Below, in pieces: positions 10,002-56,918 of a stretch of 62,877 nt of DNA. The notes beneath the pieces were generated by a model, which searched no databases, had not been told where the DNA came from, and saw only the letters and a list, made by a program, of their open reading frames with translations. This DNA is from an uncultured Candidatus Saccharibacteria bacterium (GTDB lineage: Bacteria > Patescibacteriota > Minisyncoccia > Phycocordibacterales > CSBR16-119): NCBI GenBank assembly GCA_964652835.1, contig CAZZCB010000003.1, positions 1-62,877 on the forward strand, in the 5' to 3' direction. The translations under genes and the position numbers were made by a program. Position 1 is the stretch's first letter, and every line of letters starts with the position of its first letter.

Positions 10002-10033
10002 AAATGCCGAAGGCGCAAGCCTTCGGCATTTTT
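10002..10033. terminator. Bidirectional terminator hairpin
   Basis: aaatgccgaagg-cgca-agccttcggcatttttt; closes both the + strand islet and the - strand surface operon. Confidence 0.7.
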
Positions 10034-12434: not shown

Positions 12435-12436
12435 AA

Positions 12437-13477: not shown

Positions 13478-13478
13478 T

Positions 13479-25078: not shown

Positions 25079-25654
25079 TTAATAAATCTTTTCCGTAAAA
25101 ACTACAAGTCTTTCACTATGAGTATCTAGCCAGTCGTTCCAGTCTCCGGTGCAAGTAATAAGGTTTAAGCGAACTATCCCATCATCTGCAGAAAATATCT
25201 CTGTCGTGTCGGAATAAATCGGATAGCTTTGTATTTTTGTTACTTTAAAATGGTCCATATTTCCGTAGTTGTTTGTCACGCTTACAGTGTCTCCAATTTG
25301 TATATTTTTTAAATTCGTGAAGACGGCATCTTCGCCGTTTTTCCAGTTTACGTGTCCCGCAAGTACCGAGCTTCCAACTTCTCCAGGCTTTGTCCCTAGG
25401 CTATACCATCCTACATTGTGGCCAAAAGTTGGCACAGCCATCGCTCCATCCAAAATCCCAACAGCTTCAACGGGTGCATTTACTCCGACACTTTCGATTG
25501 ATATTTTTACAGGATATGTTTGTTTTAATTCCTCCGTGACGGTGATAGTTTCTTTTGGTTGGGCCTCTGGATTAGGTTCTTTAGGTACTAAAAAAGCCAA
25601 AGCACAAAGCACAGTAAAGCCAGTAAAAGCGAGAATATTCGGCAACTTTTTCAT
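25079..25654 (-). CDS. Sortase family transpeptidase
   Basis: N-terminal TM; LAGHVNW (His) and LITCTGDW (TLxTC Cys) motifs. Confidence 0.85.
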   Translation of the reverse strand: MKKLPNILAFTGFTVLCALAFLVPKEPNPEAQPKETITVTEELKQTYPVKISIESVGVNAPVEAVGILDGAMAVPTFGHNVGWYSLGTKPGEVGSSVLAGHVNWKNGEDAVFTNLKNIQIGDTVSVTNNYGNMDHFKVTKIQSYPIYSDTTEIFSADDGIVRLNLITCTGDWNDWLDTHSERLVVFTEKIY

Positions 25655-35753: not shown

Positions 35754-36125
35754 ATGTCAAAAAATGTTCAAGGGGGTTATTACCTAAAAGCTACTCAAAG
35801 TATCTTCCTAGTTGCTGGAATCCTTATGGTGTTTACTTTCCCTTATTTTCTAAAATATTTTAACTTTTCCGGGATGGCTCTGATGTTTATCATGGTGGCT
35901 TTGGCGGTGCTAGCAGGTTTTACAGGTGGTGGAAACAAACTTGTTTTAAAATTTAACGTATTGGTTGCCGTAGCTGGATTTACTCTGGCTGCTTATCGAG
36001 GTGTGGTTATATTTTTCCGAGGGGTTGAAGAACCTCTAGCGATATTTTCTTTCTGGACACATCAAATTTTAGCTTTAGTGTTTTTCTTGGCGATTTACTT
36101 TGCAGTGAGAGCCGTACGTTCTTAA
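35754..36125 (+). CDS. Small polytopic membrane protein (about 4 TM)
   Basis: Hydrophobic segments; ends 10 nt before the ATPase gene. Confidence 0.6.
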   Translation: MSKNVQGGYYLKATQSIFLVAGILMVFTFPYFLKYFNFSGMALMFIMVALAVLAGFTGGGNKLVLKFNVLVAVAGFTLAAYRGVVIFFRGVEEPLAIFSFWTHQILALVFFLAIYFAVRAVRS

Positions 36126-36135
36126 TTTATTTTAA

Positions 36136-38127: not shown

Positions 38128-38146
38128 TTTTTTAGTCTAATTTAAT

Positions 38147-39583
38147 ATGAGATATATTTTGTTTTTTGCAGTATTTTTCGTACCGATTTTTGCCAGGGCA
38201 GACGTTTTAATCTCAGAAGTTGCTTGGATGGGGACAACAGACAGTCAATTTGAAGAGTGGATCGAACTTCAAAACACTGGAAGCGAATCCGTTTCGCTAA
38301 GTGGCTGGAAAATATATAAAGCCGGAGGAGACACTCTTTTGTTTTCTCTGTCAGGCAGTATTTCGGCTGGTCAGTATCTTTTAGTTTGTCGGACGACAGC
38401 CAGCGTAAGCAATCCTTTGTCTGGAAGTTGTGACCTGAGCGGCGCTTTTGGTGGAAGCGGGTTAAACAATACAAGCGAATATATTATTCTTAAAAATGAT
38501 TCAGGAAACTCAGTGGATGAAGTAAACGCAAACGGTGGATGGCCAGCGGGCGACGCTTCAACCAAACAGACAATGCAAAAAAGCGGTTCGTCCTGGATAA
38601 CAGCAGACGGTACGCCAGGTGAGCCCAATGCTTCTTCTGGTGCAAACGACGAAGACGAGGACGAAGACGACACAAATACAGAAGAAGAGGAGGATGAAGA
38701 AGTGGAGACATCTTCGTCGTCAGCATCAAAAGATACTCGGCCGACATATTCGAAAAAAATTGTTGAGATAAAGGTTGTCGACAGTAGTGTGCCCGCTGGT
38801 TCACCTGTAAAATTTTCTTTAAATACTAGAGATTTAAGAGGTGCCAATATTTTACGTGGAGAATTTTTCTGGAATATGGGAGACGGAACAGAAAGATATT
38901 TTGCTAAAAATGAAAAATTCGAACACATATATGATCACGAGGGAACTTACACAGTTTATTTAAAATACTACAAAACTTATTTTGAAGGGATGGAGCCAGA
39001 TATCGTCGACAAGATAACTGTCACGGTCAGTAACCCAAGCGTCAGTATCTCTGAAATACATCCAGACGGAAGTGTTGAGATTAAAAATAATTCTAGCCAA
39101 GAAGTTGATCTATCTTTATGGACTTTAAAAGATGGCTTCGGAAAAAGTTTTTTGATCCCAGAAGGTACGTATATAGCTGGAAGTAAAACTCTAGTTTTGA
39201 ATTCCAAAAGAATAAATTTAAATCCTGGGAATATTATGCTTTTGGCTCCAAGCGGAAGTTTTGTTGGAAATAAAAGTTTGATTGATGAGACGTCTTCTTT
39301 GAGTCAAAAGGTGAGCGCATCTTCTTCGCGTTCTCGAGGTTATGCTCCGAGAGAGGAGGAAGGGGAAGTCTTAGGTCTTACTGATGAAAAAGAAGAATCT
39401 ACAAATCTAAACGATAGATTGGGTTCTGATAAAAAAGTAGAGACAAAACAAAAACAACAATCTGTTTGGATTGTTGTTTTTGTTCTTATGGTCATAATTT
39501 CTTGCACCTTAGTATTTCTTATATATAGAAAGAAAAAAGAAGAAGAGATTATCGAAGAAGACGAGTTTCAGTTGATTGACTAA
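38147..39583 (+). CDS. Secreted lamin-tail-domain (LTD) x2 + PKD-like protein with C-terminal TM
   Basis: VLISEVAWMG...EWIELQNTGSESVSLSGWKI; acidic DE linker; GDGTERY...HIYDHEGTYTVYLKY (PKD-like); second LTD SISEIHPDGSVEIKNNSSQEVDLSLWTL; TM near the C-terminus. Confidence 0.8.
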   Translation: MRYILFFAVFFVPIFARADVLISEVAWMGTTDSQFEEWIELQNTGSESVSLSGWKIYKAGGDTLLFSLSGSISAGQYLLVCRTTASVSNPLSGSCDLSGAFGGSGLNNTSEYIILKNDSGNSVDEVNANGGWPAGDASTKQTMQKSGSSWITADGTPGEPNASSGANDEDEDEDDTNTEEEEDEEVETSSSSASKDTRPTYSKKIVEIKVVDSSVPAGSPVKFSLNTRDLRGANILRGEFFWNMGDGTERYFAKNEKFEHIYDHEGTYTVYLKYYKTYFEGMEPDIVDKITVTVSNPSVSISEIHPDGSVEIKNNSSQEVDLSLWTLKDGFGKSFLIPEGTYIAGSKTLVLNSKRINLNPGNIMLLAPSGSFVGNKSLIDETSSLSQKVSASSSRSRGYAPREEEGEVLGLTDEKEESTNLNDRLGSDKKVETKQKQQSVWIVVFVLMVIISCTLVFLIYRKKKEEEIIEEDEFQLID

Positions 39584-40913
39584 GATTTATTTTCTTGAAA
39601 GAAGCATTTGTTTCCTCAAGAGATCTTATTGCCTCTGCTTTTATATCTATCGGTAAAACTTCTACTTCATTTTTTATTTCAGTCTTTACATCTGTTTTGA
39701 TTTCAGTTTCTTTTACTGGAGCAGTAGGTTCCTCAGGCGCTTTTTCTGTAGCCTTTTGCTCTGACAACTCTTTGATTTCAAAAACAGCTTCAACGCTTTT
39801 TATTTTTTTATATTCTTCTATTTGTCCGATTATTTTCTTAGCTTCTTGAGAGAGCATTAAGGCCTCTTTAAAGTTTCCGTTTGCTTTAGCTTCCTCTGCT
39901 TTTAGAAGTAGGCTTTCTGCTTCTTTAACTTTTAGCTCTGCATCGGTTTCTGAAACTATCTCGATAGATCTAAGAGCTGGCAACGCCAAAGCGCTATCCA
40001 TTGCTACGTCAGAATTAATTTCTGCTGACATTAGGCTTACATCCTCAGCATTTTCCGCAGTTTTAGCTTCCTCTGTCTTTATTCCAATTTCGATATTTTC
40101 TTTTTTAAGACTTTCGATTTTATTTTTTACTTCTTCTTTGTTTCTTTCTGTTACTTCTTCAGCAGTTTTTTGGTCTTCTTCTACTTTTTCAATAACATTT
40201 TTTTCAGCTTCTTCTACTTTTTTAATAGCAGCGTCCACACCTTCCAGTAAAGAGTCAGTATCATCTTCCATCATTACAGTAGTCTTAAAAGACATAGTTG
40301 TGTTTGTGTCTGTCTGAAGGTCGGCTTCAACTTTTTGTTCTGTTAGAACTTTTTTATGAGCCTCAAGTACTGGAGTTAGTTTAGAAGTTGTATCTAGGGC
40401 TTCTTCTATCTTTCCTTCATCTTTAAGATCTGTGATAGTTTTCGTAACTTCGGCCACATTTTTTTCTAGATTTGTTTTTACGATTTCTTTTTTCTCAGGA
40501 GATAGGTCGTTTTTCTCAACAAGCTTTTGAGCTTCTGTTAAACGTCTCTCAACTTTCTGTGTCTGTACAGTAACTTTCGCTTCAGTTGTGAAAGCTAATT
40601 TTTCTTCTATTTTTTCGTTAACGTTTATTTTTACGTTGTATAGTTTATCTCCCGGAAGAGCATCTGTTGAAGCGTAAGAAACTCCACTTCCTCCGACAAC
40701 AATAAGGGCTATTAGCACCAAAGAAACACCTTTTGCTAGGGTTCTAAAAGTAAAGATAGAGAAGTAAAAAGATTTCTTCGGAACATGAATATCGCCCCGG
40801 ATAGGGTTAAATGAGATGAACTCTTCTATTTTATATCGCAAAACATCTTTCTCTTTTTGTGAAAGACGAATGCTTTTTAATATCTTTATAAACTTTTTCA
40901 TTTTTTTATTCAT
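39549..40913 (-). CDS. DUF5667-like membrane protein (putative anti-sigma/partner of the ECF sigma)
   Basis: Overlaps the sigma gene by 8 nt; cytoplasmic N-terminus, one TM, DALPGDKLYNVKINVNEKIEEKL, long coiled-coil E/K-rich ectodomain. Confidence 0.65.
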   Translation of the reverse strand: MNKKMKKFIKILKSIRLSQKEKDVLRYKIEEFISFNPIRGDIHVPKKSFYFSIFTFRTLAKGVSLVLIALIVVGGSGVSYASTDALPGDKLYNVKINVNEKIEEKLAFTTEAKVTVQTQKVERRLTEAQKLVEKNDLSPEKKEIVKTNLEKNVAEVTKTITDLKDEGKIEEALDTTSKLTPVLEAHKKVLTEQKVEADLQTDTNTTMSFKTTVMMEDDTDSLLEGVDAAIKKVEEAEKNVIEKVEEDQKTAEEVTERNKEEVKNKIESLKKENIEIGIKTEEAKTAENAEDVSLMSAEINSDVAMDSALALPALRSIEIVSETDAELKVKEAESLLLKAEEAKANGNFKEALMLSQEAKKIIGQIEEYKKIKSVEAVFEIKELSEQKATEKAPEEPTAPVKETEIKTDVKTEIKNEVEVLPIDIKAEAIRSLEETNASFKKINLSQSTETRLLR

Positions 40914-41436
40914 TTTCTTTTAATAATTTTTTTAACTTCTCGACCCCTCTGTGTATCATAACTGAAACGTGATTTTGTGATTTATCTAAAATATCTCCGA
41001 TTTCTTTAATACTCATTTCTTCAATGTATCTCATCAGCAGTATTTCTTTGTATTTCTCATCTATCTTTTCTACCGCTTTCAGAACTCGTTCTCTGTCTTG
41101 AGCTTTTTCGAAATCTTTCTCTTTTTCTTCTAATACATTTTCCTCTTCAGTGAAATCTACTCCAGCTTCTAATATCTGATCCAAGGAAGAAGATTTCTTT
41201 TTTCTTCTATGGTCTATTATTAGGTTCTTGGCTACTCGGTAAAGAAAGGCTTTTATATTTTCCACTTCGGCGCCTTTTTGTAGGTATTGCCAGGTTTTTA
41301 TAAAAGTGTCTTGGGCAATATCTAGCGCTGTTTCTTTGTTCGAAGTTTGGAAAAGGGCATATCTAAAAATAGCGTCAGAAAACTCCTCGTAGCTTTCCAT
41401 GAAGACTTTTTCAGTTTTATTGTTCGTTTCTTTCAT
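40906..41436 (-). CDS. ECF-type RNA polymerase sigma-70 family factor
   Basis: Region 2 ALDIAQDTFIKTW..FLYRVAKNLIIDHRRK; region 4 LLMRYIEEMSIKEIGDILDKSQNHVSVMIHRG. Confidence 0.9.
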   Translation of the reverse strand: MKETNNKTEKVFMESYEEFSDAIFRYALFQTSNKETALDIAQDTFIKTWQYLQKGAEVENIKAFLYRVAKNLIIDHRRKKKSSSLDQILEAGVDFTEEENVLEEKEKDFEKAQDRERVLKAVEKIDEKYKEILLMRYIEEMSIKEIGDILDKSQNHVSVMIHRGVEKLKKLLKENE

Positions 41437-41772: not shown

Positions 41773-42348
41773 ATGAGCATCAAACCAGTTCTCACAAAAG
41801 AAGAGCTGGAAACAGTCAGCTCTTTGTATAAAAATTACCGGGAAGATGTTTTTCGTTTTTTACGTAGTAAGGTTTACGACAGTGAATTGGCAGAAGATCT
41901 AACACAAGCGGTCTACTTAAATGTGATAAGGGCGGTTTCTAGTGGTCGTTATAAGCAGGAAAAAGAGAAGGCCTGGCTTACGAAGATCGCCATGAATGAA
42001 TTTATTAACCACTACAGGAAAAAGGTAAAAAGGAAGACGGATCCTCTTTCTGTTTACCCTAATAAAGTTCTAAAAAATTTATCACCTAACCCTGAGGAGA
42101 TTCTCCTTGAGCTCGATATAATTGAGAGACTCAGAGCCCTGGTTGACCTGCTTCCGGCAAAACAAAGAGAGATTATCCAGCTACGTGTTTACCAGGAGAT
42201 GTCTTTTAAGGAGATAGAAGCCGTAACAGAAGACAATCCTAACACCTCTAGGGGGTATTACCGTAAGGCTGTGATTAGGCTAAGGCAGATGATGCAAGAA
42301 GAGAACAAGAAAAAAGAACCCGGGGAAGATCCTGACGCCGAGACGTAA
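41773..42348 (+). CDS. Second sigma-70 family (ECF-like) factor
   Basis: AEDLTQAVYLNVI..WLTKIAMNEFINHYRK; QREIIQLRVYQEMSFKEIEAVT. Confidence 0.85.
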   Translation: MSIKPVLTKEELETVSSLYKNYREDVFRFLRSKVYDSELAEDLTQAVYLNVIRAVSSGRYKQEKEKAWLTKIAMNEFINHYRKKVKRKTDPLSVYPNKVLKNLSPNPEEILLELDIIERLRALVDLLPAKQREIIQLRVYQEMSFKEIEAVTEDNPNTSRGYYRKAVIRLRQMMQEENKKKEPGEDPDAET

Positions 42349-46258: not shown

Positions 46259-48718
46259 ATGGCAAAGAAAGAAGAAAATATTCCGGAAATAATACAAAGA
46301 GACAGAATAATAAAATCTCCAATAGTTAAGGAGATGAAAGATTCTTATCTTGCTTATGCGATGTCTGTTATCACTTCGCGTGCGCTTCCAGATATCCGTG
46401 ACGGTCTAAAGCCTGTACACCGAAGAATTCTTTTTTCTATGCATAAGCTTGGAGTTACTTCGAGTGCTAAATTCGTAAAGTCTGCGAGAATCGTCGGAGA
46501 CGTGATCGGTAAATATCACCCTCACGGAGACTCTTCTGTATATGATGCGATGGTAAACACTGTGCAAGAATTCTCTTTCCGGTATCCTCTTGTATTGGGT
46601 CAAGGAAACTTCGGTTCTATCGACGGCGACTCAGCTGCGGCGATGCGTTATACCGAAGCAAAAATGTCTAAATTCTCTGGTGAACTTTTAAAAGATATTG
46701 AAAAAGATACAGTAGATTTTCGTCCAAACTTCGACGACACATTAAAAGAGCCGACAGTCATGCCGGCTTCTGTCCCGAACCTTCTTTTAAATGGAACACT
46801 TGGTATCGCTGTGGGTATGGCGACAAATATTCCTCCTCACAACCTAGGAGAAGTTGTAGATGCGACTCTACACCTCATAGACAACCCGAAAGCCACAACA
46901 GAAGATTTGGTTGAATTTGTTAAGGCACCAGACTTCCCAACAGGAGGACTTGTTTACAATAAAAAAGATATTTTAGCTGCATACTCAACAGGGCGTGGAG
47001 GTGTTGTCTGTCGCGGTGAAGCAGAAATAACAGAAACAAAAGTTGGTCAATCACAAATCATTATCACTTCTATTCCATACCGCGTGAACAAATCAAACCT
47101 AATCACTCAAATAGCAGATTTGTTCAGAGATAAAAAACTTCAAGGTCTAAAAGATTTGCGAGATGAGTCTACAACAGACATTAGAATTGCTATCGATTTA
47201 AAATCTACAGCTCATCCACAAAAAGTTTTAAATACTTTATACAAAAATACACAGCTAGAACAAAACTTCAACTTCAACATGGTTGCACTGGTTGATGGTG
47301 TACCTCAAACTCTTTCTCTAAAAGATTTCTTATCTGAATTTATTTCACATAGACAAGTTGTTGTTGTTAGAAGAACAAAGTTTGACCTTGCGAAAGCAGA
47401 AGCCAGAGCTCATATATTAGAAGGTCTTAAAATCGCGCTTGATCATATCGATGAAGTTATTAAAACTATCCGTGCATCAAAAGACAAAGATGAAGCGAAA
47501 GTAAACTTGATGAAGAAATTTAAGTTCTCTGATCTTCAAGCTATCGCAATCCTCGATATGCGACTTCAAAAGCTTGCTGGTCTTGAAAGAAAGGAAATCG
47601 AAGACGAACTTAAAGAAAAACTAGCTCTAATAAAATACTTAAAAGATTTACTTGCAAGTCCAAAGAAAATCCTTGCGCTTATCTCAGACGAACTAAAAGA
47701 GATAAGAGAAAAGTATGGTGATGAAAGACGAACTCGTGTTATAAAAGGCGGAGTAAAATCTATCTCAGAAGAAGATTTAATCCCTGAAAAAGATTCTGTC
47801 TTAGTGTATACACTTGGTGGATACGTAAAACGAACAGATCCGACAGAATACAGAAGTCAAAAACGTGGAGGTGTGGGCGTGGTAGACCTTGAAACAAAAG
47901 AAGAAGATGTGGTTACTCATTTGCTTAATACTTCAACTCACTCTGACTTACTATTTTTCACAAATCTTGGAAAAGCATATCAGATAAAAATGTTTGAAAT
48001 ACCAGAAGGTCGTAGGGCAACAAAAGGAAAATCAATCATGAACTTCCTTTCACTTTCAGCAGATGAAAAAGTTACTTCTATCGTACCGATGGACAAAGAA
48101 AAGAAAGACAACAGTGAGTATCTTCTTTTGGTTACTCGCCAAGGGGTTGCGAAAAAAGTTTCTGCGGAAAACTTCAAAGATGTTCGCCGAAGTGGACTGA
48201 TGGCGATTAAGCTAACAGACGGAGATGAGCTTTACTCTGCAAGCTTCCTCGGTAAAACAGACGAAGTTATCGTTGCGACAAAGAAAGGCCAGTCTATCCG
48301 ATTTAAAAGCTCTGACGTGCGTGAAATGGGTCGCTCAGCGGGTGGCGTACGCGGAATGAAGCTTGGAAAAGGCGACATGATCGTCGGTGTTGGAATAATC
48401 ACAAAAGATGTAAAAGATGCGACACTTTTGGTTATGTCTGAAAACGGTTTCGGAAAGAGAACAGAAATTGAAGAATATAAAACTCAAAAAAGAGGAGGAA
48501 GTGGTATAAAGACAGCTAAAGTAACAGCTAAGACAGGGGACATAGTCGTTGCGAGTCTTATCACTCCAGAAGTTTCTGAGATTATTGCAATTTCTAAGAA
48601 AGGGCAAGTTATAAAAACAGATTTAGATTCTATATCAATCCTCGGAAGACAAACTCAAGGAGTAAAAATCATGAAGCCAAGAGTAGGGGATTCACTGGCA
48701 TCACTTACTTGTTTGTAA
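46259..48718 (+). CDS. gyrA: DNA gyrase subunit A
   Basis: [26 protein letters not shown]; [15 protein letters not shown]; AAMRYTE; C-terminal beta-pinwheel repeats. Confidence 0.97.
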
Positions 48719-48822: not shown

Positions 48823-49359
48823 ATGATTTTAAACTTTTCAAACCCAGAAAAAAATATAGAGCACCTAAATTTAAAAGAAGGAGCGGTGGTTGCAGACTTT
48901 GGATCAGGTTCTGGTCACTATGTTCTTCCGATTTCAAATATCGTTGGTGACTCGGGTAAAGTATACGCTGTTGATATTCAAAAAAGCTTACTTATGAAGC
49001 TTCAAAAAGATATAACTCAAAAAAGTATTAAAAACATTGAAACAGTTTGGGGAGATGTCGAAAATGTTGGCGGATCAAAGCTTCGGGCTTCGTCACTAGA
49101 CGCAGTCGTGGCTTCAAATATTCTCTTCCAAGTAGATAGTAAGTCTGGTTTCGTGCACGAATGCAATAGAGTTTTAAAGCCAGGAGGAAAAGTTCTTTTA
49201 GTTGATTGGTCAGAATCTTTCGGGGGGATTGGCCCACAGCCTCAAAGTGTTGTGGATGAGGAAACCGCTAAAAAACTTTTTGAGCAAGGAGGTTTTGCTT
49301 TGAAAGAAAGTATGTCAGCAGGAAATCATCACTACGGGATGATCTTTATAAAGGCGTAA
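48823..49359 (+). CDS. Class I SAM-dependent methyltransferase
   Basis: VADFGSGSGHY (motif I), VYAVDIQ, VLKPGGKVLLVDW. ATG 48823 preferred because the upstream ORF part spans the gyrA terminator; tataat at 48811-48816. Confidence 0.85.
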   Translation: MILNFSNPEKNIEHLNLKEGAVVADFGSGSGHYVLPISNIVGDSGKVYAVDIQKSLLMKLQKDITQKSIKNIETVWGDVENVGGSKLRASSLDAVVASNILFQVDSKSGFVHECNRVLKPGGKVLLVDWSESFGGIGPQPQSVVDEETAKKLFEQGGFALKESMSAGNHHYGMIFIKA

Positions 49360-49408: not shown

Positions 49409-50728
49409 ATGAAAAACTTTCAAATAATTCTACTTGTTGTTTTTGGCTTACTCGCAGGTTTGGCAGCTGCCTTTTTTTCTGGGGCTATTAAACTTCCAAA
49501 TAAAGCCTCTGACAGCGTGACTGGCGGAGCTGCTGGAAAAGTTATTATGTGGGGGACAGTCTCCAGTCGTGACCTCAGAGAAACTATCGATTTTTTTAAC
49601 AAGCAACTAGGTGGACAGATCACTCTAAGTTATGTTGAAAAAAATCCCCTAACTTTCGAAAAAGATTTACTAGATTCTTTCGCTTTTGGTGGAACACCAG
49701 ACGTTTTTCTTCTTTCAAATGATTTAATAACCCTATATTCTGACAAAGTTATAGAAATACCTTACGAAGGATTTACACAAAGAATGTTTTCCGACACATA
49801 CATTCAAGCAGCTGATGTCTTTAAAACTGAAACAGGTATTTTAGGGTATCCTTTTTTGGGTGATCCGATGGTTATGTTCTACAACAAAGACCATTTTGAT
49901 TCTAAGGGAATAGTAGCTCCGCCGAAGTATTGGAAAGATTTCTCTACTTTGGTTCCAGAGCTGACAGAAAAAAACGAGCTTTTGGAGATCAAAAAAAGCG
50001 GTGTTGCCTTCGGTGAATCTAAAAACATAAAACACTTTAAAGAAATACTTCTAGCTATGAACATACAGCTGGGCAACAACGTAGTTGTTAGAGATTTTAA
50101 CAAAGGTTTATACGCATCAGTTTTTTCTGGAAAGTCTCTTATTTCCGCAAAACCAGCAGAAGAAACTCTAAAATTCTTTTTAGAATTTTCAAACCCTCTA
50201 AAATCTGTTTACTCTTGGAATAAATCAAGACCAGATTCGTTAACTGCTTTTGTTGGTGGGGATTTATCAATATATTTTGGTTTTGCTAGCGAAATACCTT
50301 TAGTTGCCAGAATCAATCCAAATTTAAATTTTGATATTGCAAATATTCCTCAAGTAGAAGGTTCTTCAAACACCTTAACTTATTCAAAGATTTATGCCGT
50401 TTCGGTGTCTAAGGCAAGTAAAAATCCGCAAGCCGCATTTTATGTAGCTAGTCAGCTTGCAAACGGGCAGATAGCGGCACCTTTTTCTCTTGTTTCCGGA
50501 CTTTCTCCTGTTAGAAGAGATTTACTTTTACCTACGGCTTCCGTTACTAAATTTACTGATGTTTACTATAAATCTGTAATAGCGTCCAGATCTTGGGTCG
50601 ACCCAAGTTACGAGCAAACAAATATTGTATTTAGCGATATGATAGAAAATGTTCTATCTGGACTTAAAGATTATTCAAAATCTGTAACTGATACAAATGC
50701 AGAATTAAAAGCCTTACTTGCACGATAA
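49409..50728 (+). CDS. Membrane-anchored extracellular solute-binding protein (ABC family-1 SBP-like) with no transporter partners nearby
   Basis: N-terminal TM; VIMWGT...LSYVEK...TPDVFLLSNDLI...YPFLGDPMVMFYNKD typical SBP_bac_1 features; stop overlaps the next start (taATGa). Confidence 0.75.
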   Translation: MKNFQIILLVVFGLLAGLAAAFFSGAIKLPNKASDSVTGGAAGKVIMWGTVSSRDLRETIDFFNKQLGGQITLSYVEKNPLTFEKDLLDSFAFGGTPDVFLLSNDLITLYSDKVIEIPYEGFTQRMFSDTYIQAADVFKTETGILGYPFLGDPMVMFYNKDHFDSKGIVAPPKYWKDFSTLVPELTEKNELLEIKKSGVAFGESKNIKHFKEILLAMNIQLGNNVVVRDFNKGLYASVFSGKSLISAKPAEETLKFFLEFSNPLKSVYSWNKSRPDSLTAFVGGDLSIYFGFASEIPLVARINPNLNFDIANIPQVEGSSNTLTYSKIYAVSVSKASKNPQAAFYVASQLANGQIAAPFSLVSGLSPVRRDLLLPTASVTKFTDVYYKSVIASRSWVDPSYEQTNIVFSDMIENVLSGLKDYSKSVTDTNAELKALLAR

Positions 50729-51963
50729 TGAAAAAAATAATTTATAGAAAAATATTTTCAGTTTTAATCGGTATTATAGCTGCGCTTCCACTTACGTCAT
50801 TTGCTCAATCAAACATAGCTGATGTTGCATGGGAGGTAACCCCTTCGACATATTCCGCCTACGGTGGTGGTTTTATGTCTATACCTTCAAACAGTTTGTC
50901 TTTCCAATGGCAGTTAGAAATCGGTTTTCCTGGTGAATGGACCACTAACCCAAACGGCAGTCTCGAGGTAAATGGCAACGGAGAAGTTTTTAAATATCTT
51001 CCAGCTTACTTACCTTTTTACTCATCAACGCCTCCAAATCTAACCTATAATATATCATCAGGGCTTTATAGATTTGATTTACCTCAAAATCTAATCGGCA
51101 CACTTTGGCCAGCCTCAAACTACTATCTTGATATTGTAGAGTGGGAATTAGGGATGGTGGGTCAACAAATAGTAGGTGAGCCACTAAGAGATTATTTTAT
51201 ATTTACAACTGATCCTATATCTAATCTAAGTCTAAACGTAAACACTCAATCAAGCGGGTCTGTTTCTCTGGGTCTCCAAGTTCCAGCCGGTGTAAACGTA
51301 TACAGTCCTCAGGGGGCAACATCAAACTTTGGTATGCCTGTAGATTTTTATCTTTTATCTCAAGATAGAAGTGGTGAGCAGATTGAAGATGTAGATCCCG
51401 CTTTGATACTTTGGTCATCTGTGGACGAAGAGGTTTTTAACTCGACTGGATTCATATCTGTAACAGTTGATTCCGGAATAATAAACCCTGGAACGGCTTA
51501 TTATTTAAAGATGATAAATAGTAGAGATAGGGCAGGTGCGCTTCCTATTACTGCGTCAGATATTTTAATACAAATACCAACACCTACAGAAGAAGAAACA
51601 GGGGGTGGTGGATCTAATCCAGGGTTTCCAGCTTCGGGAGAAGAATTTGAAAACGGACTTATTACTTGCGACGAAAGTCCGGGTAACGAATGTAATTTCG
51701 AAAAACTCCTTCTTGCCGTAAATAAAATAATTCGATTTATTGTATTTGTTATCGGAATTCCAATAGTTACACTTATTTTTGCTTACGCTGGATTTTTAAT
51801 GGTTACAAGTGGTGGAAATCCAAGTAAAAAAGATGAAGCCAAAAGTCTAATAGGTAACGCCGTCGTAGGGCTTATCGTCTTGCTCGGAGCTTGGATTATT
51901 GTTCGTACTGTTTTGGTAGTCTTTGGATATACTGGTCCATTATTAGGAATCTTAGGTGCATAA
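50728..51963 (+). CDS. T4SS-pilin-like (TrbC/VirB2-like two-TM) domain fused to a ~300-aa unique ectodomain
   Basis: Signal peptide ..LTSFAQ; Gly linker TGGGGSNPG; C-terminus IGIPIVTLIFAYAGFLMVTSGGNPSKKDEAKSLIGNAVVGLIVLLGAWIIV. Confidence 0.7.
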   Translation: MKKIIYRKIFSVLIGIIAALPLTSFAQSNIADVAWEVTPSTYSAYGGGFMSIPSNSLSFQWQLEIGFPGEWTTNPNGSLEVNGNGEVFKYLPAYLPFYSSTPPNLTYNISSGLYRFDLPQNLIGTLWPASNYYLDIVEWELGMVGQQIVGEPLRDYFIFTTDPISNLSLNVNTQSSGSVSLGLQVPAGVNVYSPQGATSNFGMPVDFYLLSQDRSGEQIEDVDPALILWSSVDEEVFNSTGFISVTVDSGIINPGTAYYLKMINSRDRAGALPITASDILIQIPTPTEEETGGGGSNPGFPASGEEFENGLITCDESPGNECNFEKLLLAVNKIIRFIVFVIGIPIVTLIFAYAGFLMVTSGGNPSKKDEAKSLIGNAVVGLIVLLGAWIIVRTVLVVFGYTGPLLGILGA

Positions 51964-51964
51964 T

Positions 51965-52903
51965 ATGAATAATCAATTTTTAAAAATATTTTTTTCGGTA
52001 ACATTTTTATTAACAGGATTTTTGTTTTTAAATGTTGAAAAAGTTCACGCAGAATGTGTTGTTTTATCTGCTAATTTTAGAGTTGTAAATGCTCAAGGCC
52101 AACCAACACAAATAACTCCATCATCTTGGTATACTGAAACAGCCCCTCCTTTTGCGTACATAGATATCCAGACCTCTGGTTGTTCCGGACCAAATAGTTT
52201 TAATCTCAGTGTTACAGAGCTAGACGATCAGGCTGGGTTAGATAATGTGAATGATGATGATCTCGAGGGTTTTGATAACAGGCCTATTTCCGTCAGTGTT
52301 CCAAACTTTACTTTAGTGGTGAGAGTGGGTGAGAATGAATGCGAGTCTGTAACAACCAACTCTTTTGACTGCCAGAATTATATAAGGATAAACGATGACG
52401 TTTTAGGAGGTGTAAATGATTTCTCTCAGACATCAACTCTTGTTTATGATTGCGATGGAACCTGCCAAGATGATAATTATTGGGTTTATATAACAGAAAT
52501 AGCTTATCAATCTGTTTACAGCGGAGATACTTTACTTCAGCAAAACAATCAAAATAACCAAGGCGGAAACTCTTCAACCAGTGGTCCAGGTATTGCCGGC
52601 CAAGACATAGACATAAATATTCAAAACCCAATAGGTCCAAGCGATATGACTCTTGTTGATTTTATCCAAAAAGTTATCGACTTTGCCTTAACCATCGGTA
52701 TACCTATTATAGCTATTGCCATAATCTACGCCGGACTTTTATTTGTTACTGCTCGTGGTAATGACAAACAACTCGAAACAGCTAAAAATGCTTTCACATA
52801 TGCAGTCATCGGCGGGGCAATACTTTTAGGATCTTTTATTTTTGCAAAATTAATAAAAGATACGATAGAAACCATTGCTATGATTAATATTTATTTTGGA
52901 TAA
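51965..52903 (+). CDS. T4SS-pilin-like domain fused to a ~210-aa Cys-containing ectodomain
   Basis: ATG 51965 (aggtg 7 nt upstream) preferred to GTG 51956; Q/N/G linker; C-terminus IGIPIIAIAIIYAGLLFVTARGNDKQLETAKNAFTYAVIGGAILLGSFIF. Confidence 0.7.
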   Translation: MNNQFLKIFFSVTFLLTGFLFLNVEKVHAECVVLSANFRVVNAQGQPTQITPSSWYTETAPPFAYIDIQTSGCSGPNSFNLSVTELDDQAGLDNVNDDDLEGFDNRPISVSVPNFTLVVRVGENECESVTTNSFDCQNYIRINDDVLGGVNDFSQTSTLVYDCDGTCQDDNYWVYITEIAYQSVYSGDTLLQQNNQNNQGGNSSTSGPGIAGQDIDINIQNPIGPSDMTLVDFIQKVIDFALTIGIPIIAIAIIYAGLLFVTARGNDKQLETAKNAFTYAVIGGAILLGSFIFAKLIKDTIETIAMINIYFG

Positions 52904-52904
52904 T

Positions 52905-53705
52905 ATGAATTTTTTTAAAAAATTATTTTTTCTAAGTTTGTTGCTGGTTTCGATCCCTGAATTTTCGCTTGCCGCTGGTTCAGCTACCTTTACTTATCCA
53001 CCAGCAGTAACTTTTCAAACCAGCGGAAGCTTGGTACAGGTTATCGCTGAAGGGTCTATAACCCTGCAATCCGCGACCGAAGACGACTTTTTTTTAGGTG
53101 TAAAAACTTTTACCGGCAATACGCCACCCACCCAGGAACAAATAGATAACCCAGAAAGTTTAAATTTTATTAGTACTTCTCTCGGGGGTACAGCATTTAA
53201 CTCTTCCGCAAATCTTTCCCCAGGAACTTCTTATTACTTTATATTTAAGATAATTCCAAATGGCGAAAATATAACAGGAGATATTGAAGTTGTTCCTGTA
53301 AATACCCCGGGTTCTTCTGCTGGTGGGGTAACACAAGATCCTCCGTGCGAAGGTTGTGCAGTCGATACTAGCGACTCATCTGGAAGTTATGTGGGCTGGC
53401 CACAGGAAGTTATCGACAACCCTTTGGCGGTTAGTGACCTAAATAGTTTTATCGTCGGTCTTCTAAACGCTCTTCTTAAAATCGGTATTCCAGTTCTTAC
53501 AATATTTTTGGTTTACTCAGGTCTAAGGCTTGTTATGGCAAGAGGAAATGAAAAAGAGCTTGAAGATGCAAAGAAAAATTTACTATGGGTTATAATAGGA
53601 GGAGTAATACTGCTAGGTTCGTGGACCATAGTAAGAATTTTAAAAGGCACGTTCGATGAAATAGATTTAGCATTGATTAATAGTTTAATAAGTCACATAG
53701 TTTAA
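52905..53705 (+). CDS. T4SS-pilin-like domain fused to a ~170-aa ectodomain
   Basis: ATG 52905 preferred to TTG 52896; signal peptide ..FSLAAG; C-terminus IGIPVLTIFLVYSGLRLVMARGNEKELEDAKKNLLWVIIGGVILLGSWTIV. Confidence 0.7.
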   Translation: MNFFKKLFFLSLLLVSIPEFSLAAGSATFTYPPAVTFQTSGSLVQVIAEGSITLQSATEDDFFLGVKTFTGNTPPTQEQIDNPESLNFISTSLGGTAFNSSANLSPGTSYYFIFKIIPNGENITGDIEVVPVNTPGSSAGGVTQDPPCEGCAVDTSDSSGSYVGWPQEVIDNPLAVSDLNSFIVGLLNALLKIGIPVLTIFLVYSGLRLVMARGNEKELEDAKKNLLWVIIGGVILLGSWTIVRILKGTFDEIDLALINSLISHIV

Positions 53706-53706
53706 T

Positions 53707-54117
53707 ATGAAAAAATATTTAGCAAGTTTTTTTACGGTAATAATACTCCTTTCACCTTTAGTTTCTTTGGCACAAGGAAATGTCACAGTTAGCTATGTTA
53801 ATGGAAACCAGTCTGGAGTTTCTTGTACAAACCTAGAAGTTGAAAGTCTTCAATCTCTGCTTGGTTTAGCTACTTGTATATTAATAAAATCTCTTTGGCC
53901 TCTACTTCTTACTATCGCTGTAATCGTATTTATTATCGGCGTTATTAAATATATTGCAAACGGAGATGATAGCGCCAAAAGAGAAGAGGGAAGAAACTTT
54001 ATTCTTTATGGACTTGTTGGTCTTTTCGTTCTAGTTTCTGTTTGGGGACTCGTCGGTGTCCTACAAGGAACATTTGGACTAGAAAGCACTCCTGTTATTC
54101 CACAGTTACAAGACTAG
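53707..54117 (+). CDS. T4SS-pilin-like small protein (136 aa)
   Basis: Signal peptide ..VSLAQG; two-TM hairpin LLLTIAVIVFIIGVIKYIANGDDSAKREEGRNFILYGLVGLFVLVSVWGLV. Confidence 0.7.
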   Translation: MKKYLASFFTVIILLSPLVSLAQGNVTVSYVNGNQSGVSCTNLEVESLQSLLGLATCILIKSLWPLLLTIAVIVFIIGVIKYIANGDDSAKREEGRNFILYGLVGLFVLVSVWGLVGVLQGTFGLESTPVIPQLQD

Positions 54118-54246
54118 TCTTGCTCTACTTGGTGTTATAATTAAATAGAATATAAATTCCGCACTCATGGCGTGGTCATAAATTATGGTCGCTCCTTGGT
54201 TCGGAGTTTATGTAGATTATTATTAGTTTTTATAAATATTTATTCT

Positions 54247-54678
54247 ATGAGTAAATTAATGAAAGGTTTAGGTGTTTTGAGTTTAATGGTGGCGCCATTT
54301 ATGGCTTCTGCTGCAGATCCATTGGGTACAGAAGTTGGTGGTAATACAATATTTAATTTATTGGGGATAATTGCCGCAATAATGAACGTGGTAATACCAA
54401 TCCTTATTACTCTTGCTGTTCTTTACACAATCTGGGGTGTTATCAAATACGCAACAGCAAAAGAATCAGAAGATCAAGCAGAAGGAAGAAGAGTTATTAT
54501 TTCAGGTATTATTGGTTTGTTTATAATAGTTTCTATCTGGGGACTAGTAGCTGTTCTTAACTCTACATTTGGTATTAACCAAGGAGGTCAGAACCTAGAC
54601 ACAACAGGATGTACTGCAGGTACAATTATTGGATATACTGGAACAGGTCCGACAGCTACTCCAATATTCTGTCAATAA
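54247..54678 (+). CDS. T4SS-pilin-like small protein (143 aa)
   Basis: Start at MSKLMKGLGVLSLMVAPFMASAADP; ILITLAVLYTIWGVIKYATAKESEDQAEGRRVIISGIIGLFIIVSIWGLV. Confidence 0.7.
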   Translation: MSKLMKGLGVLSLMVAPFMASAADPLGTEVGGNTIFNLLGIIAAIMNVVIPILITLAVLYTIWGVIKYATAKESEDQAEGRRVIISGIIGLFIIVSIWGLVAVLNSTFGINQGGQNLDTTGCTAGTIIGYTGTGPTATPIFCQ

Positions 54679-54681
54679 TCT

Positions 54682-55002
54682 ATGTATCCATTTATCCTTA
54701 CAGCTTACGCCTCTGTTGATGAGACTATAAGAAAAGTTAATAAGGCAATTATTAATCCTCTGATAGTGCTGATGTTTGCTATCGCCGCTGTCTATTTCGC
54801 TTATGGAATATTCGAGTTTATAAAAGACGGAGATTCTTCTGACGCGAGAGAGAAAGGGAAACAGCACATTGTTTGGGGTCTTGTAGGTATGGCTATTATG
54901 GGTTCTGTGTTTTTCATAATGCAGCTCATTTTGGGGACACTTGGAATAGAAGACCAGATTAACGTTCAAGATATCGAGGTAAATTTACCTCCTATCGAAT
55001 AA
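54682..55002 (+). CDS. T4SS-pilin-like small protein (106 aa)
   Basis: LIVLMFAIAAVYFAYGIFEFIKDGDSSDAREKGKQHIVWGLVGMAIMGSVFFIM. Confidence 0.65.
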   Translation: MYPFILTAYASVDETIRKVNKAIINPLIVLMFAIAAVYFAYGIFEFIKDGDSSDAREKGKQHIVWGLVGMAIMGSVFFIMQLILGTLGIEDQINVQDIEVNLPPIE

Positions 55003-55005
55003 ATC

Positions 55006-55039
55006 AAAACAAAATCCGCCGAAAGGCGGATTTTGTTTT
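55006..55039 (+). terminator. Rho-independent terminator ending the pilin operon
   Basis: aaaacaaaatccgcc-gaaa-ggcggattttgtttt. Confidence 0.8.
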
Positions 55040-55050
55040 AGAAGACTTTG

Positions 55051-55072
55051 GGGCGCGCCTCACGGCGCGCCC
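55051..55072. terminator. Second GC hairpin
   Basis: gggcgcgcc-tcac-ggcgcgccc. Confidence 0.5.
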
Positions 55073-55109
55073 TTTAGTATTAAAAACAATTATTTAATTA
55101 AATCAAATG

Positions 55110-55140
55110 AAAAAGCCCCCGACCTAGGTCGGGGGCTTCT
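55110..55140 (-). terminator. Terminator of the minus-strand SPFH operon
   Basis: aaaaagcccccgacc-t-aggtcgggggcttct; T tract on the minus strand. Confidence 0.7.
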
Positions 55141-55161
55141 CGTTTACGTGCTGGCGCATTA

Positions 55162-55848
55162 TTAGTTGCGCACAGTGTTGTCACTAAGATGGCTGCATGT
55201 TTTTGTAGCATCCACGTTTGCGACAATAGTTACTTTGCTTACCTTGGAGTTGGGTCCAAGGTATAAGCCGTATTCTCCGACCTTGCACTTATTCAGCGCT
55301 TGGCCTTCGTAAAGAACTGGCTCGTGTCCAACGGCCGGAGTTACATCTCCGTGGTCGTTTTTCTCGAGCACTACAACATACAGCTCAATATCCTTCGCTG
55401 GGACTCCTTTAGGGGCGAAGAACGTGAGTTCCTCGCCTTCACCAGGAGTAGAGTAGCGTGTGAGCTCAGCGAGGTCCATATCCTCACCCAGCTTACTGAC
55501 TTTGATCTGTGTGCCGTTGTAGGTCATCATCCCGGATCCTTCGTTGGCGTGAGTGAGGTCGTGGCCGACTTCGTCCCACATCCATATACCGAAGAAAATC
55601 GCGACTCCGAGCCCTAGGCCCAAACCCACGACGGGTCCGAGGGGTCTATTCCACCACCCCTTCACTTTGTCCTTGATGGACGTCTTTGTTGGGGCGGGGG
55701 ACTCATCTGTTGCTGCCGGTTCTTTTTCATCCGACTTTGATTGTACGGATGCTCGGCTCATTCGCTTTTCCTTGTTTCCATACAAGTAAGCGATGATTCC
55801 GATAGTTAAACCAGCAACACCTATTGCGATTAGTGCGCTGTTGATCAT
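55162..55848 (-). CDS. Two-TM membrane protein (228 aa), partner of the SPFH protein
   Basis: TM1 ALIAIGVAGLTIGIIAYLY, TM2 VVGLGLGLGVAIFFGIWMW, soluble beta-rich C-domain; 4-nt overlap with the upstream gene; higher GC. Confidence 0.7.
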   Translation of the reverse strand: MINSALIAIGVAGLTIGIIAYLYGNKEKRMSRASVQSKSDEKEPAATDESPAPTKTSIKDKVKGWWNRPLGPVVGLGLGLGVAIFFGIWMWDEVGHDLTHANEGSGMMTYNGTQIKVSKLGEDMDLAELTRYSTPGEGEELTFFAPKGVPAKDIELYVVVLEKNDHGDVTPAVGHEPVLYEGQALNKCKVGEYGLYLGPNSKVSKVTIVANVDATKTCSHLSDNTVRN

Positions 55849-56918
55849 TTCTTTTCCTCTTTTTTGGGCTGTTGGTTGATATCGAAAGTTGGCATTACAC
55901 CTCCACCGATAACAACACTTGCGCCAGGTTTAACACCTTTCATACCATCCGCCAAGAAGGCGAGAGGGTTGTTTCCATTTGCGTCAACGAAAGCCTTGTG
56001 GGCATCCGCGACAACCTTTCCTTTATCACGGATTTCCTTGACCTGGAAAGCCAATTCCACCTCCTTCGCCTCAACAGCAGCTTGTGCGAGCTGTTTGGCT
56101 CTTACCGCCTTGCCATACTCTTGGTCGGCAGCCTCAATTATTGGCATATCAAGATCGTAAATCATGACGCCGTATTCGTACCCACCATTTTCCTCTGGTC
56201 CCATATTGGTGTTCGTACGATCAATGATCTTTTTGGCGACACCATCTTCGTTCTTGACTTCAGTCTTGATCTTAAGTACATCATCAAAACTGAGCTTTTC
56301 TACTTCAGGCCGAAGAGCGGATTCGAAAGAGTGCTTTATCGGCCTGTTTCCATCACGAAGTTTGGTATCGTACCTTTCCGCGTGCTCAACCTGAAGAGTC
56401 ATTGAGACCGCAAAGTTTACCAGGTTTTTCCCTTCGATCGGGATGCCACCTAAGACTATTGCGTGATTCATGAATACAGGTGGGGCAGTGTAATATGTCG
56501 GCCCCTCTTCTACAACCTTGCACTCAATCGAACCATCAGGGTTTTGAGAGAACTTCAGTCTCGATTCGGCGACCTTCTTTCCTTCTACTCCTCCAATCCA
56601 AGGTATCCCCGTCCAGACCATGCCAAGAATTGAAAAGAACGGATTCTTTTTCAGGTTTTCTCGGTATGTATCATTAGGGGATTTTGTAACCTGACCTTTT
56701 GAGTTTATTGCAAGGTTCTCACTGTTGATGTAGTAATCAGCAATGCGATTTCCTCTCTTGACTCGCAGGTACCGGTTGTTAGGTAGTTGGGTGAATGGCC
56801 CAAACTCAGTGAAAGATAGTCCGTACAAAAGGACAACTATCCCCACTACTGCAAAGAGAAAATATCCAATGATTTCCATGGTCCTATGTTGTGTTTGTTG
56901 GTTGCTTTCAAAGTACAT
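55845..56918 (-). CDS. SPFH/band-7 (prohibitin/flotillin-like) membrane protein
   Basis: N-terminal TM IIGYFLFAVVGIVVLLY; SPFH-like core; Ala/Glu/Lys coiled-coil AVRAKQLAQAAVEAKEVELAFQVKEIRDKG; alternative start at 56879; about 55% G+C in line 56041-56100. Confidence 0.65.
   Translation of the reverse strand: MYFESNQQTQHRTMEIIGYFLFAVVGIVVLLYGLSFTEFGPFTQLPNNRYLRVKRGNRIADYYINSENLAINSKGQVTKSPNDTYRENLKKNPFFSILGMVWTGIPWIGGVEGKKVAESRLKFSQNPDGSIECKVVEEGPTYYTAPPVFMNHAIVLGGIPIEGKNLVNFAVSMTLQVEHAERYDTKLRDGNRPIKHSFESALRPEVEKLSFDDVLKIKTEVKNEDGVAKKIIDRTNTNMGPEENGGYEYGVMIYDLDMPIIEAADQEYGKAVRAKQLAQAAVEAKEVELAFQVKEIRDKGKVVADAHKAFVDANGNNPLAFLADGMKGVKPGASVVIGGGVMPTFDINQQPKKEEKK

Follow-up and report, generated by a model that had tools for sequence, protein, structure and literature searches.

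The stretch of DNA analysed here, hereafter the window, comprises 62,877 nucleotides (nt) of contig CAZZCB010000003.1 (assembly GCA_964652835.1) from an uncultured member of the Patescibacteriota deposited as a Candidatus Saccharibacteria bacterium. On its forward strand lie seven consecutive genes, in which a membrane-anchored solute-binding protein (SBP) is followed by six pilin-like paralogues that we term P1 to P6. The SBP gene (49409-50728), of family 1 and with an N-terminal transmembrane (TM) segment, shares a single base with P1 (50728-51963), stop and start being joined as TAATG, as an initial annotation made from the letters of the window had reported. Each of the first three paralogues carries an ectodomain ahead of a C-terminal pilin module: two FN3-like domains in P1, a Cys-rich beta-sandwich in P2 (51965-52903; 312 amino acids, aa) and an ectodomain of ~140 aa in P3 (52905-53705; 266 aa). 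The remaining three, P4 (53707-54117; 136 aa), P5 (54247-54678; 143 aa from its ATG) and P6 (54682-55002; 106 aa, without a classical signal peptide), are minimal pilins. All seven open reading frames (ORFs) share one strand and were found where the initial annotation had placed them, but three of its starts had to be moved to the first ATG (P2 to 51965, P3 to 52905 and P5 to 54247). The corrected P2 has exactly the length of database gene call P0156, and close relatives of the corrected P5 measure 139-147 aa. With these starts, 1 nt separates P1 from P2, P2 from P3 and P3 from P4, and 3 nt lie between P5 and P6, while P4/P5 spans 129 nt (54118-54246, forward strand) and holds a promoter-like gap with a conserved leader preceding P5 and P6. 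A terminator scan located a hairpin with flanking A/T runs, CAAAACAAAATCCGCCGAAAGGCGGATTTTGTTTTA, at 55005-55040 (no strand assigned), which is likely a bidirectional terminator closing the operon. The earlier description of a seven-gene operon is an oversimplification: the block is also collinear with an upstream gyrA and methyltransferase gene, and its last two genes possess a promoter-like gap of their own.

The six pilins are recognizable by their C-terminal modules. Against the Pfam family PF18895 (T4SS_pilin; cut-off 26.6 bits), P1 to P5 score 29.7, 29.6, 42.4, 37.8 and 34.7 bits, and P6 falls 0.8 bits short of the cut-off (25.8 bits, E 1.1e-5). The proposal of six modules resembling pilins of type IV secretion systems (T4SS) is thus borne out, and the matches speak against ordinary membrane anchors that fit no pilin profile. 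By hydropathy, P1-P5 have a signal-like segment at the N-terminus and a pair of TM helices at the C-terminus, and P6 has two TM helices. In the AlphaFold2 models made for P1 and P2, a helical hairpin of 35+35 residues (324-360/365-398 and 230-264/267-311, respectively) comes after a disordered linker of Gly, Gln, Asn and Ser. The modules align over ~90 columns at 11-45% identity and form two subgroups, P1-P3 and P4-P6. The locus accordingly has the features by which patescibacterial VirB2-like arrays are recognized, namely two or more PF18895 or PF04956 genes in tandem or one gene apart with low mutual identity, ~25% on average, here in a run of six; likewise, the encoded proteins show the form expected of PF18895, small and secreted, with a C-terminal hairpin of two hydrophobic helices around a short polar loop, and P6 departs from it in having no classical signal peptide.

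The SBP belongs to a different and equally recognizable family. It matches PF13416 (SBP_bac_8) with 47.6 bits (cut-off 27) over residues 60-374, which places it in the PF13416/PF01547 family 1, and a profile search of the PDB matched 489 SBP sequences, sugar-binding in type. The similarity to these solved proteins is remote, the best being 4r9f at E 3e-18, and a scan of NCBIfam gave only a sub-threshold match to MalE. Homologues of the protein are numerous and bear names of the Patescibacteria/Paceibacteria type. Many of its aromatic and polar residues are invariant, consistent with a preserved binding cleft. By hydropathy, the TM segment covers residues 1-29; a type IV prepilin signal was ruled out for this N-terminus, which has no Gly before Phe and no Glu5. 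Conservation of the TM helix (0.52) equals that of the globular domain (0.54) and far exceeds that of the linker between them (0.24), and for this reason we suggest that the helix may make contacts inside the membrane.

The association of this SBP with pilins extends well beyond the window. An SBP alignment scan of species-representative genomes returned at least 583 loci, of which the best 80 were studied (SBP identity 34-78%), covering Nomura-, Taylor-, Kaiser-, Adler-, Wolfe-, Campbell- and Zambryskiibacteria; pilin ORFs were called with a family hidden Markov model (HMM) built from array modules, which also recovers P6. A pilin ORF lies 3' of the SBP gene on the same strand in 74 of 74 loci with at least 600 nt downstream, and at least three pilins follow it in all 62 loci with at least 3 kb downstream. 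The number of pilin genes after the SBP is 3-7, usually 4-6, and complete arrays hold 4-7 genes in 55 of 60 cases. At ~48 of 77 SBP/first-pilin junctions the genes overlap or are separated by no more than 16 nt. Full-length homologues of P1 and P2 likewise share contigs with SBP homologues. Recurrence in 74 of 74 related loci makes the arrangement non-random. Clustering of neighbours further reveals a collinear block of MBL-fold protein, small ORF, gyrA, methyltransferase, SBP and pilins, whose families are present in 54-77 loci each (the small ORF in 25). Specifically, 69 related loci have gyrA upstream in the same orientation (in locus L087 the orthologue carries DNA_topoisoIV and DNA_gyraseA_C), and in 70 of 81 loci the methyltransferase, whose offset has a median of -559 nt, stands between gyrA and the SBP or array. 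Downstream of the block the neighbours vary, with convergent rbfA/infB in 21-28 loci, and linkage of SBP to pilins is kept down to 34% SBP identity. The locus is one local instance of an operon that much of the class Paceibacteria (Parcubacteria) has conserved, and this conservation removes the objection that the array might be private to this genome.

It could be argued that the SBP is simply the receptor of an ATP-binding cassette (ABC) sugar importer encoded elsewhere and that it adjoins an unrelated pilin operon by accident. The protein retains the hallmark motifs and profile similarity of MalE/UgpB-type sugar binders, its many invariant aromatic residues are those expected of a working cleft, and arrays lacking an SBP exist. 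One of these appears in the gene table of Ca. Yanofskyibacterium, where gyrA, the methyltransferase, four PF18895 pilins and tRNA-Leu form a transcribed block that lacks an SBP and lies eleven genes from VirB4 (PMC10936435). However, the SBP subfamily was never seen without an array in the loci examined; the linkage, mostly with overlapping or nearly overlapping stop and start, persists despite the changing downstream neighbours; and the membrane anchor is conserved. Moreover, family scans found neither an ABC permease nor an ABC ATPase in the window, no protein with Walker A and LSGGQ motifs occurs in ~1.2 Mb across 81 loci, and the ±10 kb around the SBP are free of ABC partners in the loci examined. 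Ten multi-TM neighbours from related loci were compared with BPD_transp-type and other ABC permease families and none matched. The SBP is thus an orphan, as first described, whose conserved linkage is to pilins and not to ABC partners, and accidental adjacency seems very improbable to us. Because a gyrA-linked array exists in Ca. Yanofskyibacterium without it, the SBP has the look of an accessory that joined a gyrA-linked array of earlier origin. Ca. Southlakia provides a separate observation on SBPs of this phylum: SEML1_0634, a family-5 peptide SBP beside secG, was scored as essential, and the few flanking rows shown in the supplement contain no transporter gene (PMC10633639). It may be another orphan SBP with a non-transport role in Patescibacteria.

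The pilins themselves are not interchangeable in their order. When the best match of each pilin of the window was located in 58-59 other arrays, P6 corresponded to the last gene in 57 of 58 and P5 to the penultimate gene in 47 of 59. The matches of P4, a third-from-last type, fell at position -3 or -2; P1 corresponded to the first gene in 55 of 59 arrays, and P2 and P3 to the second or first. Across genomes, module identity within a position is 0.35-0.42, compared with 0.23 when the first position is set against the last or the penultimate one. Conservation is highest in the last and penultimate classes, whose sizes are tightly bounded (78-131 and 91-177 aa), and first-position genes range from 120 to 737 aa. 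Judged from these alignments, the paralogues diverged long ago into types that each keep to their own place in the array, and such positional orthology ruled out recent tandem amplification. Since the types are positionally fixed across genomes, the comparison favours a hetero-oligomer of specialised subunits over a set of interchangeable antigenic variants.

The latter alternative deserves attention, as antigenic or host-range variation has been suggested for patescibacterial pilin arrays (PMC12102498). Under this view, by analogy with Bartonella and Anaplasma, the genes would be tandem-amplified, interchangeable versions of one pilin. The low identity among the paralogues of the window (11-45%) resembles that reported for such arrays (PMC12102498), and the heads at early positions do differ between genomes. 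Nonetheless, positional orthology holds across genomes whose SBPs are as little as 34% identical, identity within a position across genomes exceeds that between late and first positions, and variability is concentrated only in the head-bearing early genes. The genes are also tightly coupled and presumably co-expressed, with no silent-copy or recombination signature evident. We therefore give this explanation very little credence.

A second feature setting the last two genes apart is the gap that precedes them. In related arrays the junction before the penultimate gene is the sole long one: its median length is 105 nt, and 55 of 59 arrays have 60 nt or more there, compared with 5-18 nt elsewhere. 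Over the 54 gaps of at most 400 nt, an extended -10 element occurs in 24 (0.8 expected), ATTATTA in 39 (1.7 expected) and [GA]GTCG, ~47 nt 5' of the ATG, in 31 (8.4 expected). The gap of the window contains an extended -10 element, TGTTATAAT, at 54133-54141, GGTCGC at 54187-54192 and ATTATTATTAG at 54216-54226. Rfam returned nothing above threshold in the operon or its internal leader, and its weak matches at 54970-55190 are terminator hairpins. From the long junction and the enriched promoter motifs, we infer that the last two genes are transcribed separately, and probably strongly. This fits expression data from Paceibacteria-methanogen co-cultures, in which PF18895 pilins, including an adjacent pair of whatever array position, are among the five most expressed signal-peptide genes (PMC10936435). 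At the 5' end of the gap, some relatives (e.g., L036, L041, L033, L062 and L079) carry a DnaA-box-like TATCCACA, matched exactly in 11 of 54 gaps (0.1 expected) and in the relaxed form ATCC[AC]CA in 20 of 54 (0.9 expected) but absent from 54118-54246 of the window. The box is a hint of possible DnaA control over the last two pilin genes in a sub-clade.

At the opposite end of the array, the early genes are distinguished by their heads. The initial annotation had predicted three N-terminal ectodomain fusions on low-complexity linkers, and these are indeed present in P1-P3. The AlphaFold2 model of P1 (26-sequence alignment, pLDDT 77.7) comprises a signal helix, two beta-sandwiches, a disordered linker (288-318) and the hairpin, and Foldseek relates it to tandem FN3 domains (E 2e-6), a generic match that identifies no specific adhesin or lectin. 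In the model of P2 (pLDDT 77.9), one beta-sandwich precedes a disordered Gln/Asn/Gly/Ser linker and the hairpin; its ectodomain has six invariant Cys among 37 homologues, and Foldseek found no significant fold match in the PDB (best E 0.02). The anticipated lectin or adhesin fold thus did not emerge from either model, both heads being generic beta-sandwiches, of FN3-like and Ig-like type. The ectodomain of P3 is weakly similar to that of P1 (26% over 90 aa, pairwise E 0.005). CHB_HEX_C, a C-terminal module of chitobiases and hexosaminidases, is found among the heads of relatives, mostly in first-position genes, together with subtilase, FN3-like domains and Ig/cadherin/PKD repeats (one protein reaching 2170 aa); elsewhere the pilin module is fused to a lytic transglycosylase (P0153) or an InlB B-repeat. 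This variety among first-position orthologues supports the proposal of a distinct head for each module. Joined to diverse heads that change from lineage to lineage, the pilin module reads as a general display platform.

Such versatility raises the prospect that the C-terminal hairpin is no more than a reused membrane anchor and that the proteins bearing it are independent surface proteins with no higher-order assembly. The great diversity of heads sharing the module, enzymes such as the subtilase and lytic transglycosylase among them, is in line with this, as is the weak sequence homology to VirB2. However, three or four genes of each array are minimal and have essentially nothing to display, and it is these genes that are the most conserved members and that have their own promoter gap. 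Fixed gene order and the fusion of modules to one another, described below, argue instead for joint function, and independent anchoring strikes us as improbable.

The fusions were found in a profile search with the six modules against 1.84 billion representatives, which matched 59,391 clusters at E <= 1e-3 and 7,786 at E <= 1e-10. The top matches contain 2-17 modules per chain, with repeated hairpins, short Gly/Ser/Thr linkers and no internal signal peptides. P0200, P0201, P0208, P0210 and the ORF at 8001-9011 of L087 have 3-17 tandem modules (six in P0201, 17 in P0210) and reach 1775 aa with ~34 predicted TM helices. One three-module protein, P0206 (named "pilin" by NCBI, from Paceibacterota), lies in the orthologous SBP operon of L087, which runs gyrA, methyltransferase, SBP, pilin, pilin, three-module protein, 213-nt gap, pilin, pilin. 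All three of its modules are of the P4 type and stand at the P4 position. A frame or genetic-code artefact was ruled out, since internal modules have neither signal peptides nor start codons, and it is further contradicted by the fusion that is a called gene in an NCBI genome within an orthologous operon. Every linker of such a chain would be extracellular, so that side-by-side fusion is topologically allowed, and we regard these proteins as gene-fusion ("Rosetta stone") evidence for modules predicted to work side by side. No description of such poly-pilins was found in the literature searched.

These chains bear directly on the main rival to a filament, a membrane-resident complex in which the modules stay in the cytoplasmic membrane as a bundle or pore of fixed stoichiometry, to which the TM-anchored SBP delivers ligand, making up a new SBP-dependent uptake or sensing device derived from T4SS pilins. 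Covalent chains of 2-17 modules with all linkers extracellular, one of them replacing the P4 gene, are what such a complex might produce, and the fixed, ordered paralogue types are those of a defined hetero-oligomer. The conservation of the SBP TM helix, the missing ABC partner in 81 loci and the lack of T4SS machinery linked to the array here all point the same way. Against this, no energising component is linked to the array, and heads of 300 aa together with giant adhesin fusions suit an exposed structure better. In solved conjugative pili, both pilin termini face outward, and short external linkers are consequently compatible with a filament as well. Finally, PF18895 arrays of Saccharibacteria and Microgenomatia lie beside VirB4, and that of Ca. 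Yanofskyibacterium is eleven genes from it, which fits a T4SS-assembled structure. Taken together, we consider a membrane-resident complex possible but doubtful. Still more speculative, and in our estimation quite unlikely, is the idea that the pilins and anchored SBP constitute a T4SS-derived envelope device of fixed stoichiometry that captures and imports a host-derived molecule and replaces the missing ABC importer in Paceibacteria, with the poly-pilins as its single-chain versions.

The reading we prefer, with a confidence that is about evenly balanced, is a surface structure in which pilins form a hetero-oligomer with exchangeable heads and a ligand-binding SBP serves as an accessory. Following export by Sec, the modules would insert as hairpins with both ends outside and assemble side by side into one hetero-oligomeric structure. 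The products of the last two genes would form its abundant core, and the head-bearing pilins would be minor, host-specific contact subunits. Assembly would probably be performed by a T4SS of the VirB4/VirB3/VirB6 type encoded elsewhere in these genomes. The SBP, held in the membrane by its conserved TM helix, would dock on the assembly as an accessory subunit for ligand binding or capture, and the overall role would be host contact, the capture of a host-derived ligand, or both. Filament formation and function are what we infer in this reading.

Several observations weigh against this proposal. Sequence support for homology to VirB2 is weak: the TrbC/VirB2 model PF04956 (cut-off 27.9), which the initial annotation had named as a check, scores only 24.5 bits with P3, 20.7 with P2 and 10.1 with P1 and yields nothing for P4-P6. 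An hhalign comparison of a 112-module profile with seven alpha-proteobacterial VirB2/TrbC sequences, assembled into a reference alignment from plasmid records, gave a weak, collinear alignment (probability 13%, E 0.0022), and a PDB profile search with the 112 pilin modules found no pilin at E <= 10 and chance hits only. The T4SS link is accordingly drawn from published genomic association, from structure-based annotation in other classes and from three genomes with SBP-led arrays that are VirB4-positive in Table S1 of the published survey (PMC12102498). VirB4, VirB3 and VirB6 genes are absent from the 62.9-kb contig and from the neighbours conserved within ±10 kb in the 80 related loci, and clustered neighbours of the related loci include no conserved transporter or T4SS gene of any kind. 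By the convention that a patescibacterial T4SS cluster has pilins within ~20 genes of virB4 together with TrsD, PrgI/VirB3 and VirB6, the locus is not such a cluster. Long covalent chains of modules are awkward for a pilus built by extraction of single subunits from the membrane, and the fusions are no harder to reconcile with a fixed assembly of modules side by side than with a classical pilus. The putative physical contact of SBP and pilins is deduced from gene linkage alone, and the presumed abundance of subunits from promoter motifs; moreover, one table for Ca. Yanofskyibacterium, whose array has no SBP, shows the first gene expressed as highly as the last two (PMC10936435).

The surroundings of the operon provide further context. 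Upstream, gyrA occupies 46259-48718 on the forward strand (an 819-aa ORF that reads as GyrA), followed by a small methyltransferase dependent on S-adenosylmethionine at 48823-49359 (forward; ~178 aa from ATG 48823; Methyltransf_11/25/31 and UbiE matches). The latter also adjoins the SBP-less array of Ca. Yanofskyibacterium; its candidate roles are to act on the pilins or to serve plain housekeeping. After the array, a convergent pair of membrane-protein genes overlapping by 4 nt (55845-56918, reverse, 357 aa, then 55162-55848, reverse, 228 aa) is shared by none but the closest relatives. At this place (55162-56918 in the window), other loci encode multi-TM proteins unrelated in sequence, several with a similar short C-terminal stretch. 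A VirB6-like or permease partner was sought among these convergent proteins and rejected: they have no Pfam match and are mutually unrelated by jackhmmer.

The sole other T4SS-like gene on the contig, as had been noted initially, encodes a VirD4-like ATPase of the type IV coupling protein (T4CP) class at 36136-38127 (forward; TrwB_AAD_bind, TraG-D_C and T4SS-DNA_transf matches), 11-13 kb upstream of the array. T4CP homologues are common in Patescibacteria and rarely near virB4 (PMC12102498). Within its region (35754-39583, forward), the gene is flanked by a 123-aa protein without a Pfam match and by the product of 38147-39583, a secreted protein that combines two lamin-tail domains with a PKD domain, and together they may be a separate small surface or DNA-handling module. 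The contig otherwise combines housekeeping genes (secA, dnaE, truB, hisS, lepB, S1, ychF, gyrA, infB, rbfA and four tRNAs) with cell-surface genes (Ig-like giants, sortase, LysM, L,D-transpeptidase). Large surface proteins at 10033-17589 (reverse) contain Big_13 and Big_6 domains and, in a 1054-aa protein, four DUF7483 repeats; they adjoin a class A beta-lactamase-like gene, with a sortase gene ~8 kb off (25079-25654 region, reverse), which suggests a second cell-surface gene island. Two divergent sigma-70 genes of the extracytoplasmic function (ECF) type lie at 40906-41436 (reverse) and 41773-42348 (forward). The first overlaps by 8 nt the start of a DUF5667 gene (39549-40913, reverse), whose product may be an anti-sigma factor.

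The interest of the locus lies in the biology of its owners. A large part of bacterial diversity consists of Patescibacteria, which are host-dependent, and both their attachment and their uptake of nutrients are poorly understood. For Paceibacteria, among the best-represented classes in the published genome survey, the pilin set emerges as a core chromosomal operon with a defined subunit order. The locus thereby offers a parts list of predicted core and adaptor subunits, a candidate ligand-binding component and natural single-chain fusions for structural work. Should the SBP work with the pilin assembly, this would be, to our knowledge, the first reported functional coupling of an SBP with a T4SS-type structure, as we know of no earlier one. 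The tandem VirB2-like pilin array found in the candidate phyla radiation (CPR) has already been published and its core is not new: 441 arrays of 2-11 genes with a mean identity of 25% were described in 383 assemblies on the basis of PF18895 (Quiñonero-Coronel et al., 2025; PMC12102498). In Ca. Southlakia epibionticum, the one genetically tractable member of the Patescibacteria, a T4SS cluster with a pilin series is essential (Wang et al., 2023; PMC10633639); its SEML1_0014-0019 are PF18895 proteins, the cluster has no SBP (PMC10633639), and a 2025 review describes the six VirB2-like pilins as structurally conserved and sequence-divergent (PMC12857230). None of these three papers (PMC12102498, PMC10633639 and PMC12857230) mentions a solute-binding protein in the context of a pilin array. 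In the literature searched we found neither a class-wide obligate SBP linkage within a gyrA-anchored core operon, nor paralogue types bound to their positions, a promoter ahead of the last two genes, the range of heads or the multi-module fusions.

Set beside these published arrays, the locus shares the family PF18895 and, with Ca. Southlakia, six tandem sequence-divergent paralogues; the arrays are similarly chromosomal, with a monoderm CPR host and no relaxase in view. It differs in that the Southlakia array sits in a virB4 cluster and has no SBP, whereas the array of the window stands in a gyrA-methyltransferase block away from virB4 and is led by an orphan SBP. Three of its members, moreover, carry ectodomains of 140-290 aa, and its paralogues are positionally fixed types where the published suggestion is antigenic or host-range variation.

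Compared with the MalE/UgpB-type SBPs of ABC importers, the SBP of the locus has in common its PF13416/PF01547 membership, its profile similarity to solved sugar binders and an extracytoplasmic, membrane-tethered placement as in monoderms. It departs from them in having no permease or ATPase partner in 81 loci, in its obligate linkage to pilin genes and in a conserved TM anchor in place of a lipobox or variable anchor.

The conjugative pilins VirB2/TrbC and TraA of Gram-negative T4SS (T-pilus and F-pilus) resemble P1-P5 in their signal peptide, two-helix hydrophobic hairpin and short charged loop, and the sub-threshold PF04956 matches fall in the same profile region. In contrast to VirB2/TrbC, the modules of the locus have a loop ~7 residues longer and a monoderm host, they occur as multiple fixed paralogues and not as a single major pilin, and no VirB machinery adjoins them. 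Their family also includes N-terminal domain fusions and multi-module chains, neither of which is known to us among classical VirB2 pilins. The pilin-like conjugal transfer proteins of the Mbov_0395 family (NF045849), from integrative and conjugative elements of Mycoplasma, are likewise small two-TM proteins of a wall-less or monoderm T4SS. The six modules align with this model over its full length but score 15-28 bits against a cut-off of 40, and the locus differs further in lying off any mobile element and in its multiple paralogues with heads and an SBP. Type II secretion systems and type IV pili offer an analogy only, since their fold and signal are unrelated (the locus has no class III prepilin signal peptide) and their assembly machinery is different. 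Even so, GspG-K, or PilA with FimU, PilVWX and PilE, are ordered sets of four to six small paralogous subunits, in which some members form an abundant core and others, present in low abundance, carry or recruit adhesive heads.

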